A stretch of 63,989 nucleotides of DNA, filler included, from Diploschistes diacapsis (Eukaryota), in NCBI GenBank assembly GCA_023645945.1. It is 6 parts of 6 records of this genome, joined end to end, with 100 filler letters (N's around TTAATTAATTAA, not from the genome) between each part and the next. Parts side by side here need not be neighbours in the genome. Positions count along the whole stretch, not along the records: positions 51,062 to 58,047 come from JALAIB010001324.1; 5 more parts are not named here. One strand, written 5' to 3'. Every line of letters begins with the position of its first letter. The first letter of the stretch is position 1. The position numbers were made by a program, and so were the translations under genes. The notes below the pieces were generated by a model. It was not told the DNA's origin. It ran no database searches and saw nothing but the letters and a program-made list of their open reading frames with translations. Positions 18,256-58,147 of this stretch are shown here, in pieces.

Positions 18256-19529
18256 AAGTGCATTTGTTTTTCGCTTGCGAAATTATAGCTGCGAAAGGGT
18301 CGGGAGACTTGGAATCAGACGAGAAAGGAACAGTAGTAGCCTGTTTTGTCACCACACACTTTCCTTCAGCGACGAGATTGTGAAAGCTGAGGCTGTCGGG
18401 GACTGCGGATCTCGGATCGGCGTTACATCCGGTTACAGTACGGTTTTGTTACGCCAACAGTACAAAACCATGTACGAAGCTAACATTCTTTTTTAACCGC
18501 GGACAAATACCGATTTTGGGGGCGGTCAAGGGCTCTGTTTCAGACTTGCTTTCGTTCCTTTTAGTATTAAGATCCACTTACAGAGGCTTTTTGACGTTTG
18601 CCCGAATTGCTAAGCGTGAGTACTTTGCACAGCCTCATGCCTGAGGTCCTGATGAGAAAAGACATACACAGGACAACTACCGACTTGCTTGCGGGCGAGT
18701 CGGCCTCCCAGCCTTGACCTGAGCTGATCATTGAACTGGGCTAAACAGGCATTCCTGCGACTCTTTGTGCTAAACTTCCCAGAGACAGCTAGCTTTGTTC
18801 AATCTCCGCACTAACAACTTTCCCAACACTACCCTTCTCGAAGCGGCATTTGAGAACGAGCCTTGGCAGTATCAAGCCATAGCCGCGACAAGTTGCGCAA
18901 CGAACAGCTGTTCACTCAGCAATGACTCATTCCCAACGCGAGTTACGGAGTTTCTGCAACAGCAACGATGCAACTTTGCAAACCTTGGTTGTGGCCCAGC
19001 CTCCAGCAGTCACCATTATACGCCGAGATGAGCTATCATCCAATGGCATAGGTCAATCAATTGAGCATGTTCATGGTCTTGAGACACAACTAACTGAACC
19101 TCCCTAAGGAATGAGATTGACAAGCTTTCGCCAAGGCCTCAAAGGCTCCTATTGAGAATCCATGCAGCTTACCCACTCTGTTCAAATTGGGCAAGGATGA
19201 GGGGGGGACGAACTTCGCCTGGCGTTAAGCTTCGGAAGAAGGTCTGCCCAGTAATGACGGGCAGCTTGCAGTCGCTGTGTTCCCAAGGGTTTCGAGTAAC
19301 TGGATCGATACTTTGTAACGCAGATCCATGAGCAGGCTGTTCCGCGTGGCCTGCACGTGGAAGGCGGATGCACAAAAGCCGAAAGAAGCTTATGGATGAT
19401 ATAGTTAGCTTTATATTCATGCCAGGAGCCAAAGCTATCACTCACACACACACTCTTTTCATATCCCATCTGGCTTTGGAATTTCCATTTTACTTTCCCC
19501 TTTTTTCTGAAACAACAGTCGCCTTCAAC

Positions 19530-22500
19530 ATGGCTTCTATGATCCCGGAAAGTATCGCCGTCGTTGGCATGAGCTGTCGGTTCCCGGGTGGGGCCAACGA
19601 CCCGGAAAAGTACTGGGAATTACTAGCAGAGGGCCGTGATGCTTGGTCCAAGGTGCCATCGACGAGATGGAACGAGGAAGCCTTCTACCATCCAGATCCT
19701 GGAATGAACGGTGCAACTAGTCATCGGGGAGGGTACTTCCTCGATCAAGACTTGAGCGCTTTCGACCCCTCCTTTTTCGGCATTTCTGGAGAAGAGGCAA
19801 AGGCCATGGACCCTCAGCAACGCGTTCAACTCGAGATAACCTACGAAGCTCTCGAAAATGCTGGCATCCCGATGGAAAAGCTTCCGGGCTCGAAAACGGC
19901 CGTATATATCGCCCTCTTCAGCCGTGACTATGACCGTATTGGATATAAGGATATTGGTGCCATGTCCAAGTATCACATGGTCGGGACAGGAGACGCTATC
20001 CTCTCCAATCGAATTTCATACGCCTTTGACCTGCGGGGTCCGTCGATGACCATTGACACTGGATGTTCAGGCAGCTTAGTTGGCCTGCATCAGGCTTGTC
20101 AGAGTCTTCGACTTGGCGAATCGAACTTGGCGCTTGTGGGTGCCAGCAACCTCATTTTATCCCCAGACCAGCTCATTCCCATGAGTCTTGCTCGGTAAGT
20201 CCGCAAATCTTTGATGACGCTTAAGCGCTAACCGTGCGCAGCTTCCTCAGCGACAAGGGACATTGTTATTCCTTTGACAGCCGTGGGGACGGCTACGGCA
20301 GAGGCGAGGGCGTGGCTATGGTCGTTCTCAAGCGGCTCAGCGATGCACTGGCCGCGGGGGACAACATTCGTGCCATTGTACGCAACACTGGGATCAACCA
20401 AGACGGGAAAACGCCAACAGGCATAACTGCTCCCAGTGCAGATGCACAGGCAGACTTGATCCGACAAGTCTACGCAGAAGCTCGGTTGGACCCCCGGGAT
20501 ACCACGTACCTGGAAGCACACGGAACCGGAACCAAAGTCGGCGACATGGCAGAATTTGAATCAACAAGGGACACCTTCCGCTGCAAAGATCGAGAGCGCT
20601 CCTTGATCCTTGGGTCGGTCAAATCAAGCATCGGACACTTGGAGTCGGCGTCTGGAATTGCAGGCTTGATCAAGACAGTCTTGATGTTTGAAAGGGGCTT
20701 CGTCGTGCCAAATCTGCATTATCGATCTCCGAAGCCGGACATTGACTACGATGCAAATAATATGAGGGTGACTCCGACCGCGTCGAGTGAACACAGAGCT
20801 TTTCTGACACATATTATTAGATTCCTAGCAAACTTCAGTCCCTAAAATCCATCACCGATGGGGTGCACCGAGCCTCCATCAACGGATTTGGATATGGCGG
20901 TGCCAACGGACATGTCATTCTAGATTCGAGTGCTTCACTGGGTTTGCAACAGCGAAACAGTTCACGTCGCAAAAACCTTCACGGTAAACATTCTCATGTT
21001 AACGGCATCACCGAGGGTACGGCCAACGGAACTTCCTACAACAAACGATCTACAAATGGCTCTTCTCACTCGGATCAAGCGAACGGCTTCGGCCACTTGA
21101 TAACCTTTACCGCCAAGTCTGAGGCTTCGCTACGCCAAATGCTCAAGAACTTTGGAGCATGGGCGGATGGACGAGAGATTACGGAAGAAGATCTCGTGAA
21201 CCTCTCGTATACACTTTGTGCGCGAAGGTCAATCTTCCCTTGGAGGAGCAGTGTTCTTGTCCAAGATTCGGACGAGCTCAGACAAGCACTGGGTGGAAAC
21301 GACATGGCCATTACCAAGTCTTCGAGCAATCCACGCGTCACCTTTGTCTTTACAGGTCAAGGTGCGCAATGGACTGGAATGGGGCGAGAACTTCTCCAGG
21401 TCGAGTCCGAGTTCGGCAACTCGCTCAGGAAATCTGACAGTATTTTGCGGGGACTGGGCGCTGAGTATTGCCTCATCGAAGAACTTGAAATGGAGGAGCC
21501 TGAATCGCGACTGAATGAAAGCTGGCTGGCCCAGCCTGCATCAACTGCACTACAGATTGCTTTGGTGGACTTGCTGCGCCAACTGGGTGTTAAGCCGACC
21601 ATGGTGCTTGGCCACTCCAGTGGTGAGATTGCAGGAGCGTATGCTGTCGGGGCTCTATCGCATCACTCGGCGCTCAAAGCCTCTTACGAAAGGAGTGCTC
21701 TGGCTGCCATCTCCCGGAAAGTTTTGGGAAAGAAAGGCGCGATGATGGCAGTAGGCCTGGGAGAAGAAGACACCTTATCTTACATGACTGGACTGGAGCC
21801 CGGCTCGGCGACTATAGCCTGCGTGAACAGCCCTTCCAGCGTCACTGTCTCGGGTGATGATAGCGCAATACGCGCGCTGAAGGAGTTATTGGATGCCAAA
21901 TCCGTCTTTGCTCGGCAACTCAAGGTCGACACCGCCTACCACTCTCATCACATGCAAGAAATTGCCGATATATACTTTCAGGCCATGGGCGAGCTAGAAT
22001 CCAAGGATGCAAAGGTCCCATTCGTCTCCTCGGTCACCATGAAGGCAAAAACTAGGGGCTTTGGAGCCTCTTACTGGGTTCAGAACCTTGTTTCACCGGT
22101 CAGGTTCTCAGATGCGCTGGCTGAGGCTTCAAGATCAGGCGCAACGACGAACTCGACAACCACCTACATCGAAATAGGACCTCACTCTGCCCTGCTTGGT
22201 CCCATACGCCAAACTCTTGCTGCTGCTGCGTCAGGTACGGCTTTCAAATATGTCCCAACGTTGCTCCGTAACAAGAACGCCGTTGGCTCCATCCTGGAAT
22301 CGGCAGGGAAACTCTTCGACGGTGGCCACGGGGTGGATCTTCGCTCCATGCACGGTTTGGGAGGTTACGAAGGCAAACGTCTCCTGCTAAACGATTTGCC
22401 AACTTATTCATGGGATCGTTCCAATCACTACTGGCGCGAGTCTCGCCTCAGTCGAGACCATCGCTTCCGAAAGCATGCCTACCACGACTTGCTGGGGGTC

Positions 22501-25500
22501 AGAGTCGTGGACACTGCGCCTACCGAGCCAGCTTGGAGACATTTCATTTCGCTCGACTCCCATCCTTGGCTGAGCGACCATGTTATTGAGAAAGCTATGA
22601 TCTTCCCTGGCGCTGGCTATCTATGCATGGCCCTCGAAGGCCTCAAGCAGCTTGCTGAGGAGCAAGGCCTACACGCGAGGATGTCCAGATTCATCTTCCG
22701 CGATGTCTCGTTCTTGAAGGCATTGATCATCCCTGAAAACAAACAGCGGGTTGAAATGATCATGAGCTTCGCCTCCAGAGAGGTGACAAGCGAGAAGGAC
22801 ATGCTGGGATGGGAAGATTTCCGTATCCGAACCATTACACCTGACGGAGCCTGGTCGGATCTCTGCAAGGGCCGCATCGCTCTGGAGCTCGACGAACTTA
22901 CTGGAAGCGGCGATTTCGAATCCCAGCAGCAATGGGTGAATCGTGATCAGGTCAACCTTTTCAATAGCGTTGCCAGCGCTTGCTCAAACAGTGCGGTTCT
23001 GAATACGCACTACTCAGAATGTGAGGCAGCTGGAAATGTCTACGGGCCGTTATTCGCCTTGGTGGAGGATTTGAAGATTGCCGGGTCATCTGCCTTGGCC
23101 AAGGTCACTGCTCCAGATGTTGCATCCATTATGCCATACCGCCATATGAGTCCTCATTTAATTCACCCAACGACTCTTGACAATATCATACAGATAAGTC
23201 TTCCTCTGTTCTACCGTGTCTGCACAAAAGGCGCTGCCATGCCAGTCTACATTGAAGAGATCGTGCTTTCAGCCGCACAAAGCAGCAACCTGGGTTCAGC
23301 TCACGAGGTTGCATGTGTATTGAATGCAGCTGGGCAGCGATCCGGATTCGCTGATTTTGTAGCCGTGCAACGAGGACTGCAAGGTCAGGTTCTCCCTACG
23401 GTCATGATCAAAAGCCAAGAGCTGAGGGGCCTTGGGGATATCTCTGCATCAGGAGATGCTGAGGAACGGCCTGAGAGCATGGTTTCCAGGATGGAATGGC
23501 GGCCTGACATTTCTCTTGGTGATTTCCAGAAAGTCATTCCCATCAAGAACTCGGAAGAGGTCAGCACCGGTACACTATCGCTTGCCCGGAAAGACATTCG
23601 TCTTGAGCAGGTTACTGCTCTGTATATGGATACGGTTGTCAAAGATTTGGCAGCGTCCCAAGCGCCTGTTACAAAGCCCCATCTTCGCCAGCTTCTGGCG
23701 TGGATGAAGACGTATCTCGAGTCCGATAATGCCCAGAATCTTCTTAAGATGGCGGATGCTTCGACGCAAGATCTGCTGCACGATGAGGATGGAGAGCTGG
23801 GCATCGAAGGCGAAGCCACCATCCGCCTTGGCCAGCTTCTTTCTCAGGTTTTGACTGGCGAAACCGAGCCGCTATCCGTACTGCTTCAAGAAAACATGCT
23901 GTACCGTCTTTACGCCGATGATGCCACTACGATCTGTGACAATCACTTACAGACCTACCTGAAGCATCTTACCTTCAAGAAGCCCTATCTAAAGGTCCTT
24001 GAAATTGGTGCTGGAACTGGAGAAACCAGTTTGTCGCTCCTTCAAGCCCACTCAGCAAATTCAAACCTTTACTTCAGCCGCTATGATTACACTGATATTT
24101 CTTCCGGTTTCTTCGAAAACGCAAAGACCAAGTTTGCGCAATGGGCCGATATCATGCGCTTCAAGACTCTCAACGCTGAGAAGGACCCGGCCACCCAAGG
24201 ATTCGAAGAGGAAGCCTACGATCTGATCATTGCTTCGAATGTGATTCACGCCACGAGTTCCGTCAGCACCGCGCTCAAGCATGTCTCTAAGCTACTGAAG
24301 CCAAACGGGCAATTCTGTCTCCTGGAAATGACAAGACTGCACCCCTACTGTATGCTAGTGTACGGTGTGCTTCCAGGTTGGTGGGCGGGCTCAGAGGATG
24401 GTCGGGACGCCGGGCCGCTCCTCACCACAGAACAGTGGTCTTCCAGGCTGGCGGCAGTCGGCCTCGACCTCCACTACACCATCGACGATGTGACTGGTCA
24501 AGGCCACAGGTCTTCCCTTCTCATTAGCGACAAAGTCCCCGCGATCACTAGCCAAAGTCTACCAAGGATTCGCATTATCGATGACAAACAGTCGGATAGC
24601 TTGATCCCAAGTCTAGCGACCAGCCTGCTGGAGCAGTTTGCGGCCAAAGGACTCGTTGCTTCTATGTGCGATTGGCCAACGAATGCCGAGGTCGACGACT
24701 CAATTTACGTTGTGCTGGATGTTAACAGAAAGCCCGTGATCCGAAGCACGCTCGGTCAGTATCGATGCGCCTCGTATCTCTTAACCAAGGCTACTCGCAT
24801 GCTCTGGATTGCCGGTGGTCTGGACGAAAGAGCGGAACTGGAAGGTGCGCGCGGGCTGGCAACTGGCGTGGTCAGGACTGCTCGCTCGGAAAATGACGAT
24901 CTCAAAGCTGCGCTGCTGACACTGGAGCCGGACGCTCTCTCCGGTCCCAGCAATATCTCATCGGCTGCCTATGATATCATCTCAAGCGTGTTCGCAGACT
25001 CCGAGAAGGGCGATAGAGATGTAGATTACATACTTCGTGATGGTAAGCTCTTCATCCCAAGAATGCTTCCGGAGCAGCGAATGAACAAATTGGCCCTTGT
25101 CAAGAGTAAGCCAACCATGGAAGTTGCTCCGTTTCATCGAGATGGTCTTCCGCTCAAGCTTGGCATTGAGAAGATTGGCCTACTTGATACGTTGAGCTTC
25201 TTTGAGGACACTGATGTTGTAGAAAACGGCCTCAAACCCGATGAGGTGCAAATCCAGGTCTTCGCCTGCGGTGTCAATTTCAAAGACGTCTTCGTAGCGT
25301 TGGGTCAAATGAAGGCTACGACAAACATGACTGGCGAGTGCGCCGGAGTCATCGCCAAGGTTGGATCCGACGTCCCAGGCACCGTCAAAGTCGGCGACCG
25401 CGTGTGCGCCCTCAACGCCACGCCTTATGCCAGCATGGCTCGCGTCCATTATCAGAACACTGCGCCTATCCCGGAATCTATGCCCTTCACCACGGCTGCT

Positions 25501-28500
25501 TCCATACCCATCGTGTTTGCAACTGCGTACGAAGGCTTGATTAACGTAGCTCGTCTCTCGGCAGGGCAGAGTGTTTTGATTCCGTCTGCTAGCGGTGGCG
25601 TCGGTCAGGCCGCGATTCAAATTGCTAGACATGTTGGCGCAAACATCTTCGCTACCGTCGGTAGCAACGCCAAGCGTCAATTGCTCATCGACCAATTCCG
25701 CATTAATCCCGACCACATCTTCTCCAGCCGATCGCGGCGTTTCAAGGAAGGTCTGATGCACTTGACCCAAGGTCAAGGCGTGGACGTTGTCCTCAACTCG
25801 ACTTCCGGAGAGATGCTGGCTGATATGTGGAGCTGCCTGGCGTCCTTCGGTACGTTTGTGGAGATTGGGAAGACCGACATCTACAAAAAGGGTAACCTCA
25901 ACATGGGCAGATTCGACGATAACGTGACCTTCGCGGCCGTTGACCTGAGTCTCATGGGCAAGCACAAACAGCCGCGAGTAAATGTCCTGTTGTCTCAGGT
26001 CATGGAAATGTTTGCAGCCGGACACCTCTCTCCCGCCGATCCCACTACCGTCATGGAGCTCGGGGATATCGAGAAAGCCTTCCGATTGATTCAAGCGCGC
26101 AAGCACACTGGCAAGATCGTGCTCGACGCAAGCCTCGGCGTGAAGGTAAAGACGGTGCGGGAAGAAAAGACAGCGCCGCTAAAACTACGTGCTGATGGCA
26201 CTTACATCATCACCGGTGGTTTAGGAGATCTTGCCGGACACATGTCCAGGTCTATGGCCAAGCATGGCGCTGGAAACATCGTACTCCTGTCAAGGAGAGC
26301 CATCGAGGCAGCGCGAGAGGAGAGTTTAAAGAACGAGTTCAAGTCTATGGGCGCTAATCTGCATATCATGCGAGGAGATGTTACCTCTCGAGGCAGTCTC
26401 GCCAAGGTGATCGACTTTTGCAGGGCGAACCTGCCTCCCATTAGGGGTCTTATCCAGGGGGCTATGGTTCTCAAGGTAAGGTCGGTATTGCAATCAGTGA
26501 TCTGGCTAATATTTTGTAGGATGACATGCTGGTCAACATGACCATGGAGAACTTCGAAGCGGCCTTGAAGCCCAAGGTCGACGGAACCAAGAACCTGCTT
26601 GCTGCTCTTGACGGTCTTAAGTTGGATTTCTTCCTCTGTCTCTCTTCACTGGCCAGTATTATCGGCACCTCTGGCCAAGCTAATTATGTTGCCGCAAACA
26701 CCTACATGGACTACCTGGCTCACACCTGTCCAAATTCCGACATCCCCGTCGTCGCGCTCAATGTGGGCATGTTGGAAGACTCAAACGTCATTGCCGGACA
26801 CCAAGATATCATCACCAACCTGTTGAGAATGGGATACGCTCCGCTCAAAGTACAAGAATTCATCTCGTTCGTCGAGTACCTTATCAAGCCGGAGAACTTT
26901 GGCAAGACGGGCAAGCAAATCGCTATCGGAGCTAACGGCGCTTCCCTGTCTGTCAACCCCATCGTGGGCAAGCACGCCATGTTCCGTGCTCTGCGGAACG
27001 AGGCGGAAGACCAATTGGCTACTGCCGCCAACCAAGGATTCAAGGATATAAAAGACGTGATCCTTCCCGGCATGGACGCACAGCAGGTGTCAGAGATCAT
27101 CCACAACGCTGTCAAGGGGAAAATAGCAACTCTGCTGGCGATTAAGGACGAGGAGATTGACGACGATTGTCCTATCCGGGAACTAGGAATGGATTCATTG
27201 ATCACGATCGAGTTGAAGAACTGGGTCACTGGTAAGTTCCAGGCAAATCTGGTGACAAGCGAGATCATCGATGCTGGCAATCTATCTGCGTTGACGGGCA
27301 TGGTTGCTTCAAAGTCGGAATTGGTTAAGGAGAAGGAGAGCAGGGAGGGCAAGGAAGCCAAGGGCGAGGAGAAGGCTACTGTTCAGGAGACGAAGAAGCC
27401 AGTGGTTAAACATGATGAGGGGAAGACTCTCAAGCAGCAAGGAGTCAAACCGCAAGATATGAAGTTGCAGGAAACTCGACGAGAGCGATTCAAACAACAG
27501 GACGTACAGAAGTACACAGGTCTTACACTCTCGGAAGTTGGACTCACGGACCAAGGGCTGCCGAACATGCCTTTGCCCGAACTTCAAGCGACCATGAACT
27601 TCTTCTCCAACTCGGTCGGGCACTTCTGCTCGACATCCGAGCAAGTCAAGCTGCAAGCGGAAATCGATGATTTCCTTCACCCTGGCGGTGCTGGAGAGGA
27701 GTTGCAATCTCGACTTGTTGCTCGTATGGACGATCCTACAATCGAAGAATGGCAGAATCAGCTTTACGTCGACTATGTATACATGCGCGTGCGACCTCCA
27801 GTCTATCCTTTCCAAGCGTTCTCAAGCTGGTTCTTAGAGACCAGGCCACGGCATACGCAAGCCGAGCGTGCAGCAATCATGACAGTCACCGCAGCAGCCT
27901 TTGATAAGAAGCTCAAGATGGGACTAGTCAAGACGGATATTCTGAACGACGAGCCTCTGGATATGTCGACGTCGCGGTGGATCTTTGGATCTGTTCGCGA
28001 GCCGCACACGGGAGTGGACGTCGCGCGCAAATACGAGTGCCATGACCACATAGCCGTTCTGAGAAAGGGACATGTGTTCAAGGTAATGCTGAAGCGCGAC
28101 GATGGGCAGGACGTAGGGTTCGGAGAGCTCAAGGCAACATTCGGGGACATTCTTTCGATGCCTTTGGACGAATCTGAATCTGTGGCTGTCCTAACCGGCA
28201 CAGATAGAAATGACTGGGCCATGGTGAGTTCAGCGTAATCTGGATGACATTTTTCAACAATACATTTAAGCTAACATCAACAGATCCGCTCTGACTTCAT
28301 CTCCTCTTCCTCCCCCAACGCCAGCCTCCTCCAAACGGTCGAGTCCGCTACTTTCGCCGTTTGTCTAGATGATGCCCGCCCCTCTACCCCAACTGAGGCA
28401 GCGAACCACTTCCTCCTGCAGGGCTCTGCGAACCGCTGGTCCGACAAGGTAACCCAGCTCATAATCTGCGCAAACAGCATGAGCGGCGCAACATGGGAGC

Positions 28501-50961: not shown

Positions 50962-51061
50962 NNNNNNNNNNNNNNNNNNNNNNNNNNNNNNNNNNNNNNN
51001 NNNNNTTAATTAATTAANNNNNNNNNNNNNNNNNNNNNNNNNNNNNNNNNNNNNNNNNNNN
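50962..51061. other. Artificial contig spacer
   Basis: N44-TTAATTAATTAA-N44. Confidence 0.98.
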
Positions 51062-54556: not shown

Positions 54557-55222
54557 TTGGCTGCTGTCGCCACTGGGATACCTATGGTGGCACCATGGTG
54601 GCCCTTCGCACCTCCGACTCCGGCGGCTGGGAGAGACTGGGCAATGCAAAGCACCCTCTCCCAGCAGATCATGATGGTCGGCGTGGCACGTCGCCCGTTC
54701 CCGGAGCAGGCTCTGCCCTGCCCGAGGACTCGTGCCAGCTTCCCAGAGTGTTCTGGAATCCCCGTTCCCCTGGAGCAATTGGGGCGCTGCCGACGATCTG
54801 TCGCGCCTCCTGGGATGACCGCTCCCACTGTCGCCTTCCCTGGTGACAGTCAGATCCCGGGACCAAGCGCCGGCACCGCCTTCCCGAGTCGACCGAGGAC
54901 ATACAACCTCGAGGAGATCCTGCTGTTCCCGCGCGTGATCACCTGCGCCGAGGTCGACCAGGGACGGAAGCCGGTTTTCAAGGCGGCCAGGCGAACGAAC
55001 GAGAACCTGGAGAAGGCGCGCGGCCTTGCTCTCCGGGCACGCTACGTCGACCTTGTCGGCAAGACAAGGCGGGAGCTCGCCCCACGTGGCATCAAGTCCT
55101 GCATGAAGGGCGCAGGCGGCCGTCCCCAGAACCCGCCAGCCAAGTCTGTTCTGTGGGGTCGCTCGGCCAATCCGCAGCACCTTCGTAGGCACATGGGGCG
55201 AGGCCACGCCTTCTACCAGTGA
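54557..55222 (+). CDS. Orphan basic protein or terminal exon (~210 aa) upstream of the structured repeat arrays
   Basis: 221-codon open frame starting just after a CTAAC...TAG acceptor (54541-54555); GC3-rich codons in the 3' half; first ATG at 54584. Confidence 0.45.
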   Translation: MAAVATGIPMVAPWWPFAPPTPAAGRDWAMQSTLSQQIMMVGVARRPFPEQALPCPRTRASFPECSGIPVPLEQLGRCRRSVAPPGMTAPTVAFPGDSQIPGPSAGTAFPSRPRTYNLEEILLFPRVITCAEVDQGRKPVFKAARRTNENLEKARGLALRARYVDLVGKTRRELAPRGIKSCMKGAGGRPQNPPAKSVLWGRSANPQHLRRHMGRGHAFYQ

Positions 55223-55234
55223 TCGGTAGAAGGA

Positions 55235-55981
55235 CTCCGACAGCCTGGAGTAAGGGGCCAGGCTTGTCTTATCGGAGGATACCCTGTTCTTCTCTTTCGC
55301 TGTCCAATGTTCTGGAGTCAGGGGCCAGAACTGTCATGACGGACGATACCCTTTGCCTCTTCTTGTCGACTCTCCAAACTTCCGGAGTAAGGGGCCGGAA
55401 GCGACACCACGGAGGTTACCCTGCCTTCTCCTCTTTCTCCCTCTCGACTTCTCCTTCTCGACTCTCCAACGTTCTGGACTAAGGGGCCAGAACCGCCATC
55501 CTGGAGGTTACCCTGTCCTTCTTCTCTCCCTTCCCTCCCCCAGCACTTCTTCTTCTCGCTTCTCGGACATTTCGGAGTCAGGGGCCGAAATCGACACAGC
55601 CGAGGATACCCTCTGTCTTCTCTTCTCGACACTCCAACATTCCGGAGTAAGGGGCCGGAATCGCCACAACGGAGGATACTCTGTCTTTCTTCCCTCGCTT
55701 CTCCAACGTTCTGGATTTAGGGGCCAGAACCGACACAACGGAGGATACCCTGGAGCGGTCGTCTTGGTTCGCACCAGAGACCTCGACGCCGCATAGCCAG
55801 TTCGACATCTGGTTTTCTCTGTCCCATCCTCGGAAATCAGGGGTCCGAGGTGTCACAAGGGACGAAACCCTCGACCAGCCGTCTTGGTCGCTCCAGCAGA
55901 ATCGACAAGTCACCATCTGCTGCTCTCGACATCCCATGCTTGGAAGTAAGGGGTCCAAGCTGTCACAAGGGAAGATACCCT
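55235..55981 (+). repeat. Tandem array 1: nine 51-nt structured modules separated by mostly pyrimidine-rich spacers
   Basis: Units start at 55235, 55302, 55372, 55464, 55562, 55632, 55701, 55821, 55931; conserved loop ANTNAGGGG, covarying stems. Confidence 0.9.
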
Positions 55982-56020
55982 GGTTTCGGAGCGGCCAATG
56001 TGGCAGAATCAGGGTTGGAC

Positions 56021-57090
56021 AAGTGCCCGGGGATGGGTCTCAATGCTCGTGTCATTGAGGTGGCTGCTACCAAGGAAAGGCTTTGGGAAAAGTCGGGTGG
56101 GAGCAGCCGAGGAGACAAGCGGTCAGGGGTGACACCAGGTCTAGGATGGAAGTGCCCGGTAATGGGATTCGGCGCTCGTGTTCGTCGTCTCGTCAGCTGC
56201 CGAGGAGGGCTGTTGGAGCCAGGCGAGCTGATGGGGAAGCGGTCGGGCTGTGACACTGGGGTCTGGGATGGAAGTGCCCGGTCACGGGGCCTCATTGCTC
56301 GTGCCAATGAGGTGACTGCTGCCAGGGAAGGGCTTTGGGAAAAGCCGGGCGGTAGCAGTCGGAGGAGGTGCTGGGTGGAGGATCGAAGTGCCCGGACATG
56401 GGATTCGATGCTCGTGTCATCGTCTAGTCAGCTGCCATGGAGGGCTGCTGCAGCCAGGCGAGCTGGTGGGGAGAGTGGTGGTGGTGCTATCGTCGGAGTC
56501 GAGGGAAGAAGTGCCCGGGTATGGGATTCGACGCTCGTGTCGTCGTCTCGTCAGCTGCCATGGAGGGCTGCTGGAGCCAGGCGAGCTGATGGGGAAGCGG
56601 CCAATGTGGCAGTATCAGGGTTGGACAAGTGCCCGGTTAGGGGGTCTCATTGCTCGTGCCAATGAGGTGGCCCGCTACCAGGGAAGGGCTTCGAGAGAAG
56701 TCGGGCGGTAGCGGTCGGAGGACGCGTCTGGTGGAGGGTGGAAGTGCCCGGATAAGGGATTCGGCGCTCGTGTCGTCGTCTAATCAGCTGCCGCGGAGGG
56801 CTGTCTCAGAGCCAGGCGAGCTGATGGGGTAGCGGTCAGGCTGTGACACTAGGTCTAGGATAGTAGTGCCCGGTGATGGGATTCGGCGCTCGTGTCGTCG
56901 TCTCGTCGGTTTCCACGGAGGGCTGTCTTGGAGCCAGGAGAGCCGACGGGGTGAGCGGTCCAGTGACATTTGGGAGGAGGACAAGTGGCCGGATATGGCA
57001 GCCAGGGACTTGGAAAGCGGCCGAGTGTGGCGATGGGGTGGAGGATGAAGCGCCCGAGGTGGGACGTGGTGCTTGCAGTCACTGCGTGGC
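56021..57090 (+). repeat. Tandem array 2: eight full and two degenerate ~120-nt multi-hairpin modules of two subtypes
   Basis: AAGTGCCCGG-led units at 56021, 56150, 56272, 56386, 56509, 56627, 56742, 56864 (degenerate at 56983, 57048); conserved CTCGTGY loop. Confidence 0.9.
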
Positions 57091-58047
57091 CAGCTAATCG
57101 GGACTGACGGCCTGGTGAGTACAACTTGTGGCAACACCATAGGATATGGACTAACCTGAGAGTAGAGGGTCGTTTCGGGAGGGTTTCTGTTGGCGAGTAG
57201 GGGTTGGAGTCTCGACTCCCTAATCTGTAATCTGTAGTCGGGAGTCTGGCGCTTGGGGTCTATCGTCCATAGTCTGGGTCGGTCGTCCATAGTCTAGGGC
57301 CTCGAGTCTGTCGCTTACGCTTCGGCATTGGCTTTGGCTCTGGCGGCGCTGAGGCTGGTATGTTGCGCTGCTCCTTGCCACACGTGAGCGAGGAGGCTGG
57401 GGGCGATCAGTTCCCCTTCACCTCGCCTGTAAATGTTAGATTGCCTGGCAAACTGGAAAGGGAGTACGCAGTCTACTTCTATGGAGTATGCGAGTAGAGG
57501 AGGCAGCGTTTGTCGCAATAAAATCTTTTTCTTCATGCGTGTGCCACTTTGTGTTCACTGTAGGCGTAGATTGTGTCCCACTCCCCCTGAATTGCTGTTC
57601 CCTCGGTACTTTCTCCCCACACCACATCCGGTAAATCCAATCCATATCCTCGTTTAACCCTTTTGAGGATCTTCGCAAACCCTATCGCAAACCCTACTCG
57701 CCTACCTATACAGCAACACCACCACAACGACTTCATTTCTACTAGTCACTCAACACAACATTTTATGATCTAGCAATGTGCTCTGTACAGGGGTCACGTC
57801 ATTTCAATACCTACCCAAATTAAACTATCCGCGCCCAAACTCATTTCAACATCAACACCAACATCTTTGCACAATCACATCCTCGCATCCTCCATTCTTC
57901 CATCTTCCATTCTCGCATTCTCGCATTCTTGCATCTCGCACTCTCGCACCCGCGCGCCTGCGCACCCTTTCCACGAAAACGTCCCCCAAATGTCTCGCCC
58001 AGAAGACACACTGTGCGCGCCTCCACCCACCCCATCCCCCATAATCC

Positions 58048-58147
58048 NNNNNNNNNNNNNNNNNNNNNNNNNNNNNNNNNNNNNNNNNNNNTTAATTAAT
58101 TAANNNNNNNNNNNNNNNNNNNNNNNNNNNNNNNNNNNNNNNNNNNN
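58048..58147. other. Artificial contig spacer
   Basis: N44-TTAATTAATTAA-N44. Confidence 0.98.

Follow-up and report, generated by a model that had tools for sequence, protein, structure and literature searches.

Tandem three-hairpin modules with compensatory pairing, probably a structured RNA, in the lichen-forming fungus Diploschistes diacapsis

In the A-repeat of Xist, short cores in tandem fold into small hairpins, the spacers between them being under less constraint and biased in composition, and the cores are proposed to recruit proteins multivalently, whilst invariant unpaired letters framed by covarying stems are the general look of satellite-encoded ribozymes. In plant-virus exonuclease-resistant RNAs, as set out in an excerpt of PMC6299227, the fold is built of helices P1 and P2 with a pseudoknot. 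Here we describe a tandem array of three-hairpin modules (array 2) lying directly downstream of a second array built of another module (array 1) in a 63,989 nucleotide (nt) stretch of Diploschistes diacapsis DNA (GenBank assembly GCA_023645945.1), referred to below as the window. The array 2 module matches no described RNA family. We read array 2 as eight paralogous copies, still or until recently functional, of a ~90-nt RNA module on the plus strand, and consider it very probable that a structured RNA, or at least a single-strand structure, is under selection at this locus.

Array 2 comprises eight well-kept tandem units at 56018-56979, then two decayed units to ~57126, and each unit consists of a conserved module of 85-93 nt followed by a spacer of 22-38 nt, giving lengths of 129, 122, 114, 123, 118, 115, 122 and 119 nt for units 1-8. 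The sequence AGTGCCCGG recurs exactly at positions 56022, 56151, 56273, 56387, 56510, 56628, 56743 and 56865, and two further copies, at 56984 and 57049, carry one or two mismatches; the plus strand holds no further exact copies and, among the matches listed, the minus strand has none with up to one mismatch. An earlier note on this DNA had described a repeat array with two interleaved subtypes in the order B-A-B-A-A-B-A-A, and our segmentation and module identities agree with it: identity is 78-90% inside subtype A and 79-84% inside B, and drops to 57-65% when an A module is compared with a B module. R1, a covariance model trained on the five subtype A units, finds units 1-8 at 32-117 bits, units 9-10 weakly, and nothing else on either strand of the 64-kb window, array 1 included. 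The same note's view of array 2 as unrelated to the neighbouring array is supported at the level of sequence. The units, all on the plus strand, are as follows.

56018-56146, plus strand: unit 1, subtype B (module 56018-56108; R1 50.8 bits; spacer with mini-hairpin GUCA..UGAC)
56147-56268, plus strand: unit 2, subtype A (module 56147-56232; R1 112.7 bits; hairpin 2 CGGCG/CGUCG with a G-U pair)
56269-56382, plus strand: unit 3, subtype B (module 56269-56360; R1 51.5 bits)
56383-56505, plus strand: unit 4, subtype A (module 56383-56467; R1 112 bits; hairpin 2 CGAUG/CAUCG)
56506-56623, plus strand: unit 5, subtype A (module 56506-56590; R1 116.9 bits)
56624-56738, plus strand: unit 6, subtype B (module 56624-56716; R1 32.4 bits)
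56739-56860, plus strand: unit 7, subtype A (module 56739-56825; R1 110 bits)
56861-56979, plus strand: unit 8, subtype A (module 56861-56947; R1 107.7 bits)
56980-57126, plus strand: units 9 and 10, decayed (R1 12.7 and 13.1 bits, E-values 0.47 and 0.38)

Every unit was segmented by hand into a lead, three hairpins and a linker base. The lead (..AAGUG) is invariant and read as single-stranded; hairpin 1 pairs CCC with GGG over 3 base pairs (bp) and carries a loop of 6-7 nt starting with GG (GG..AU); hairpin 2 occupies eight aligned columns and bears the loop CUCGUGY; and a single linker base separates it from hairpin 3. The latter totals 14-17 bp, with a 7-bp outer stem, a middle helix (GCC/GGC, or UCC/GGA in unit 8) and an inner stem, which is set off from the middle helix by an internal loop that includes GGA. 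The 5′ side of this internal loop is 6-7 nt long and holds GGA in all eight units, the 3′ side is 1 nt in subtype A and 4 nt in B, and the cap is a loop of 5-7 nt in A and a GNRA tetraloop (GGGA or GAGA) in B. In unit 9 the lead is kept and hairpin 1 reads GCC/GGC, hairpin 2 being missing. All stems named in the earlier note are present in this segmentation; to its account of the hairpins we add that hairpin 2 has 5 bp in A and 8 bp in B, that the inner stem of hairpin 3 is shorter in A (GGCU/AGCC, 4 bp) than in B (6 bp), and that the middle helix is 3 bp long. Of the seven columns of the CUCGUGY loop none varies in subtype A and one varies in B, while the flanking stems vary; the loops are the most conserved letters, the opposite of what is expected of a neutral palindrome.

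Folding of single sequences gave z-scores of -2.89 (unit 1), -3.55 (unit 3) and -1.42 for the subtype B modules; the minimum-energy fold equals the consensus fold in units 1 and 3, and in unit 7 it is a near match with all three hairpins. The minimum-energy folds of subtype A also offered an extended helix of AUGGGAU with GUCUCGU, which we rejected as not conserved, as it is broken without compensation in units 4 and 7 (by eye). K-turn, SECIS, iron-responsive-element and Smaug-site readings of the loops were compared by eye with the consensus motifs and likewise dropped, none of them fitting every unit.

The array shows a higher-order period of 356 nt at 56118-56992 (2.5 copies, 77% matches, Tandem Repeats Finder), and it grew via multi-unit duplications. 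By eye, a fourth, mini-hairpin of 3-4 bp was found in seven of ten spacers, counting nine spacers and a stretch inside unit 9: it occurs before unit 1, after units 1, 2, 5, 7 and 8 and inside unit 9 (for example at 56122-56134 and 56601-56611). It comes after a conserved AGCGG and has 4 bp in six spacers and 3 bp (GUC..GAC) after unit 8. Its form, GUCA..UGAC or GCCA..UGGC, follows the spacer type, the second pair covarying from U-A to C-G, and two copies include a G-U pair.

The central evidence is the pairing of the stems. A hand tally covered 206 stem cells: 181 hold a Watson-Crick pair and 13 a G-U pair, A-C does not occur, and of the 12 left unpaired ten fall in the two columns where hairpin 2 of subtype A is shorter. 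Eleven columns vary yet stay paired in all or most units, and one column of hairpin 3 shows U-A, A-U, C-G and G-C. Inside the subtypes there are 15 variant stem states, of which seven are double-compensatory, seven are single changes that keep the pair and one loses it. Hairpin 2 of unit 4, for example, differs from that of unit 5 by a double compensatory change, whilst unit 8 has two, one at position 4 of hairpin 3 (A-U to G-C) and one in the middle helix (G-C to U-A). In the R1 alignment, 99.5% of 188 cells pair, compared with 88.3% (standard deviation 1.4) in shuffles, a level that none of 500 shuffles attained; both sides vary in 8 of the 22 pairs, and sliding the partners by 1-3 columns as a control lowers pairing to 17-46%. 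We weighted the hand tally and the within-subtype events above the R1 result because of the fitting of that alignment and the paralogy of its rows. Base pairs are kept via compensatory changes above the controls, as is the mark of a conserved structured RNA, the sequences being paralogs of one locus, and the earlier note's idea of a conserved RNA fold amplified in tandem gains support from the covarying stems, the kept pairing and the excess of G-U over A-C.

The strand can be judged from the wobble pairs. The 13 G-U cells are spread over seven columns and would be mismatches on the minus strand; such a count, with no A-C cells beside it, is what a plus-strand RNA (or the plus strand of the DNA on its own) would tolerate. 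RNAalifold gave -16.85 kcal/mol and 19 pairs for the plus strand versus -10.97 kcal/mol and 12 pairs for the minus strand. Both results, drawn from the DNA, point to the plus strand as the strand of array 2.

The array locus is present, whole or in part, in four DNA runs from four studies, no RNA run being among the eight listed:

Run X1, lichen metagenome: identical to the window
Run X2, DNA: 0.55 of sampled words
Run X3, rock metagenome: 0.43 of sampled words
Run X4, DNA: 0.12 of sampled words

For run X2, six differences are listed inside 56021-57090, three of them in stems, and all three keep the pair (mapped by script):

56550, unit 5: G-U to A-U
56586, unit 5: G-C to G-U
56699, inner stem of unit 6: U-A to U-G

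The other three listed lie in the internal loop of hairpin 3, in a spacer and in decayed unit 10. Among the contig pieces listed, X2 has 5 other letters in 850 nt wholly inside the arrays versus 21 in 1249 nt outside, and X4 has 4 in 433 nt inside the arrays versus 12 in 342 nt upstream; as these counts come from contigs, in which repeats assemble poorly, the lower divergence inside the arrays is a weak hint of constraint.

Several observations weigh against reading array 2 as a maintained RNA fold. The R1 alignment was fitted to the structure, its rows are paralogs, and the shuffles ignore their kinship. All comparisons cover 8-10 paralogs and near-identical strains, which are few and non-independent, with no relative found outside the species group. 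Spacers of the same type are 72-86% alike, about equal to modules of the same subtype, so that the comparison of module with spacer conservation adds little inside subtypes, and spacer divergence by itself is not evidence of module-specific constraint. Hairpin 1 has only 3 bp, is invariant in units 1-8 and covaries solely in decayed unit 9, and the decay of units 9-10 at the 3′ edge means that not all copies are maintained. The subtype A modules fold no more stably than shuffled sequences (z-scores of +0.43, +0.42, +0.28, +0.84 in unit 7, and -0.24), and in four of five of them the minimum-energy fold is a different one. Finally, transcription, its strand and the transcript ends are all proposed from DNA.

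Array 1 is built on a separate plan.

55233-55986, plus strand: array 1, nine modules of ~58 nt with pyrimidine-rich spacers, directly upstream of array 2

Its outer helix of 4-5 bp (CUCC/GGAG) covaries to GUCC/GGAC and CUCG/CGAG, and its 7-bp hairpin, which is fully covarying, carries the conserved loop AGUAAGGGG, whose GGG(G) is able to pair with a conserved ACCCU tail as a putative pseudoknot. Across array 1, 96.5% of 144 cells pair compared with 80.0% in shuffles, none of 500 shuffles reaching this level, and 9 of 16 pairs change on both sides. One pseudoknot pair is G-C in eight modules and G-U in module 6, where run X4 (a low-depth contig) has A-U; we regard the loop-to-tail pseudoknot as likely. 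The word depth of the X2 contig is 150-210 at 55670-56020, compared with ~80 in the flanks, which may reflect extra copies of the last array 1 units or collapsed repeats. Base pairing between the two arrays was considered and rejected, as the predicted duplex has -564 kcal/mol versus -587 kcal/mol (standard deviation 13) for 30 shuffles of array 1.

The surroundings of the arrays hold three further plus-strand features.

54584-55222, plus strand: open-reading frame (ORF) of 212 codons, with its stop 11 nt before array 1
57115-57165, plus strand: candidate spliceosomal intron of 51 nt with the consensus of short fungal introns (GTGAGT...ACTAAC...TAG), starting inside decayed unit 10
57517-57522, plus strand: AATAAA, a possible polyadenylation signal, read directly, ~350 nt beyond the intron

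The ORF shows coding-like codon usage, with a codon score of 0.117 in frame versus -0.25 and -0.07 out of frame, and has a GC content at third codon positions of 0.74. It has no Pfam match, its sole match in a database of 5.8 billion proteins is itself, and all that the ESM Atlas gave were clusters without a name, at ≤0.90. We take the ORF as a possible orphan coding gene, the arrays then lying in its 3′ untranslated region (UTR). The strict intron pattern occurs three times in the window, 0.77 being expected by chance on both strands, and the two other matches sit at frame breaks of a polyketide synthase gene; even with a relaxed pattern, the match at 57115-57165 is the only one on the plus strand of its contig. 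A single AATAAA hexamer is weak evidence, and together with the candidate intron it suggests a spliced plus-strand transcript of RNA polymerase II (Pol II).

How might such a locus work? Arrays 1 and 2 most likely ride together on one Pol II transcript, which could be the long 3′ UTR of the orphan ORF or a non-coding RNA, and which would be spliced at the candidate intron. The stems would serve only to display the same invariant unpaired letters repeatedly, and the RNA would act as a multivalent platform for a putative trans-acting partner, probably a protein. This idea is drawn from the architecture alone, that is, from many copies, invariant unpaired letters and freely varying stems, and we infer both the role of the intron and the platform function. 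Taken in full, a multivalent binding platform on one Pol II transcript with both arrays is a tentative proposal, to which we give somewhat less than an even chance. A more elaborate version, which we regard as doubtful, is a new kind of fungal RNA in which one transcript carries nine pseudoknots and then eight three-hairpin units in two alternating subtypes, where A modules and GNRA-capped B modules might dock mutually or on a dedicated protein and so form a large ordered ribonucleoprotein scaffold or a decay-resistant RNA; if true, it would be a cellular eukaryotic counterpart to modular structured RNAs known mainly from bacteria and viruses.

Searches against described families and other genomes bear on these readings. 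No model of Rfam 15 (4227 models) matched the window at gathering thresholds, and searches of 2.9 kb and 0.38 kb at E-values up to 10 gave chance-level matches only, such as TB8Cs4H2 (16.3 bits, threshold 50, outside array 2), sR22 (13.3 bits, threshold 40) and gut-2 (12.0 bits, threshold 39.8). The pattern used to scan for relatives comprised the 19 bases that do not vary across the lead, hairpin 1 and the loop of hairpin 2. The scan found 74 single-match loci in metagenome contigs, none of them tandem, with short chance stems beside the loop motif of at most six consecutive pairs (1 of 74, by script), no match in viral contigs, and 54 single matches in prokaryotic genomes, again none tandem, many of them in Nonomuraea and other Actinomycetota. 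Among 100 of these 128 loci (L101-L128 being left out), R1 scored at most 21.1 bits, compared with 32-117 bits for the true units, and identified no member. These metagenome, viral and prokaryotic collections are poor in fungal DNA and say little on relatives. In the literature, the motif strings retrieved unrelated sequences only, no comparable case came up when tandem structured RNAs of fungi or lichens were searched for, and an excerpt of PMC5640933 uses neither the word 'tandem' nor 'repeat'.

Other explanations of array 2 were weighed against the platform. It could be a polycistronic precursor cut into structured small RNAs of ~90-120 nt, of a class not yet described, with discrete units whose cores are set off by spacers differing in type and length, a fold kept under selection in each copy, and short spacer hairpins that could be processing sites. 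We think this unlikely. A box C/D small nucleolar RNA (snoRNA) has a C box (RUGAUGA) near its 5′ end, a D box (CUGA) near its 3′ end and a terminal stem; CUGAUGG occurs in three of five A units and in no B unit, and the C/D model that comes closest, the best of all the snoRNA models, reaches 13.3 bits, short of its threshold of 40. In an H/ACA snoRNA a hinge joins two hairpins and an ACA box lies three nucleotides before the 3′ end; in array 2 no conserved ACA follows hairpin 3, after which the tails are, for example, GGGGAAGCGG and GGAGGAGG. A tRNA-like fold is also absent (ARAGORN predicts no tRNA gene in the window, and no tRNA model is among the Rfam matches), no T runs that would end RNA polymerase III units were seen by eye, and hairpin 3, at 14-17 bp, is too short for a Dicer substrate. 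Nor do we favour an origin at the level of DNA without RNA function, either as minisatellite palindromes produced by template switching or gene conversion or as single-stranded DNA hairpins of a mobile or replicating element. Template switching can yield apparent compensatory changes in one step, the 356-nt period, the patchwork of spacer types and the decay of the edge units are typical of unequal exchange, and G-T is the mildest mismatch in DNA too. Such an origin is improbable nonetheless: a strand-symmetric process predicts A-C as frequent as G-T, against a count of 0 to 13, it is the loops and not the stems that are invariant, and several compensations are transversions at single pairs in otherwise unchanged arms. 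Furthermore, no transposase, reverse transcriptase or other mobile-element domain was detected in the 16 frames tested at 51-59.5 kb, and no terminal inverted repeats bracket the arrays.

Both arrays might instead be stacks that stall 5′-3′ exonucleases or stabilise the 3′ part of the transcript, as structured elements in tandem do in the 3′ UTRs of some viruses, for which array 1 has a suggestive layout (stem, internal loop, stem, and an apical loop pairing with the 3′ tail) and both arrays a suitable place, downstream of an ORF. The resemblance is one of topology only, the arrays having no Rfam match and none of the viral consensus letters being seen, array 2 has no closing helix or pseudoknot that we could find, and we know of no cellular fungal example of exonuclease blocking, all of which makes this explanation very improbable. 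A self-cleaving ribozyme satellite of a new class, cutting the transcript into monomers, would fit tandem units of ~120 nt with at least a dozen invariant unpaired letters between covarying stems. Rfam includes the known self-cleaving ribozyme classes, yet no hammerhead, twister, twister-sister, pistol, hatchet, HDV-like or hairpin ribozyme is among its matches with E-values up to 10, the three hairpins stand side by side without the junction or closing helix of a compact core, and the spacers differ in type and length, unlike those of homogenised ribozyme satellites, and we give a ribozyme very little chance. The earlier note had named a decayed protein-coding repeat as the case that would overturn its view. 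A frame of 271 codons does cross units 1-6, but five of eight unit lengths are not multiples of three and shift the frame between units, the codon score of the array 2 frame is 0.007 versus 0.18-0.19 for real genes of the window, and neither Pfam nor a word-indexed protein search gave a match, so that a decayed or cryptic coding repeat is next to impossible. An exhaustive protein search with translated array 2 returned one match, P0002 (34.7 bits for single stretches, E-value 2e-06 for the pair alone), which we do not accept as a relative, it being itself a translated 240-nt tandem repeat whose E-value is inflated by repetition. This protein has 358 residues. A perfect palindrome of 9 bp could encode its peptide HGPAVRPV, so that the sequence may be one more repeat with hairpins.

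The window as a whole is a chain of contigs joined by artificial linkers (N runs around TTAATTAATTAA), two of which, at 50964-51061 and 58048-58147, delimit the ~7 kb contig (51062-58047) that holds both arrays. On this contig Erv26 is the only recognisable gene; it lies at the left end, on the minus strand. A mechanosensitive-channel-like gene at 58.7-61.8 kb need not be a neighbour of the arrays, since a linker intervenes. The window's long frames code for eukaryotic proteins, among them a SWIRM/Myb protein and a highly reducing polyketide synthase of fungal type that carries a carnitine acyltransferase domain.

19368-28500, plus strand: highly reducing polyketide synthase (KS-AT-DH-MT-ER-KR-ACP with a C-terminal carnitine acyltransferase domain)

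The polyketide synthase gene is broken by short introns at 20195-20241 and 28224-28283. Separately, two direct copies of ~20 nt (..GTCGTCCATAGTCT.GG) lie at 57249-57300, and run X2 is without 20 nt at 57262, a copy-number difference between samples.

We know of few fungal structured RNA classes with real covariation support beyond the universal ones, and found no tandem arrays of two module families among fungal structured RNAs in the literature searched or in Rfam. If transcribed, array 2 would be a compact natural system for RNA-module partner recruitment or decay resistance, with natural mutants built in as eight paralogs and two subtypes, and it belongs to a lineage of lichen formers in which RNA biology has hardly been explored. 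Should it prove silent, or restricted to a single species group, it would still be a clean case of selection on pairing in a tandem repeat.

Compared with described systems, array 2 resembles the Xist A-repeat in its tandem hairpin cores and less constrained spacers of biased composition, and differs in its longer modules with three hairpins, its two subtypes, the second, unrelated array beside it and its occurrence in a fungus. With tandem clusters of snoRNAs, microRNAs and small nuclear RNAs it shares conserved structured units on one strand, plausibly of one precursor, although it has neither C/D nor H/ACA boxes, its stems are too short for Dicer and it matches no family. Self-cleaving ribozymes encoded by satellites, among them the hammerheads of newts and schistosomes and the VS RNA of Neurospora, come in tandem units on the ~100-nt scale with invariant unpaired letters between covarying stems, as does array 2, which in contrast matches no ribozyme model, has no multi-helix junction and has heterogeneous spacers. 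In principle, and only as an analogy, array 2 also recalls the bacterial sponge RNAs CsrB and RsmZ, in which many hairpins present the same motif (GGA, found in 8 of 8 units here) on free stems; those RNAs occur in bacteria, are built of a single simple hairpin type and act with a known partner, CsrA, which fungi are not known to have. Lastly, the arrays are cellular, array 2 has no pseudoknot that we found, and there is no sequence or model match to viral exonuclease-resistant RNAs; the likeness to these, drawn from predicted layout, is that independent folds are stacked 3′ of a coding region and that array 1 shares the arrangement of P1, P2 and pseudoknot described in the excerpt of PMC6299227.

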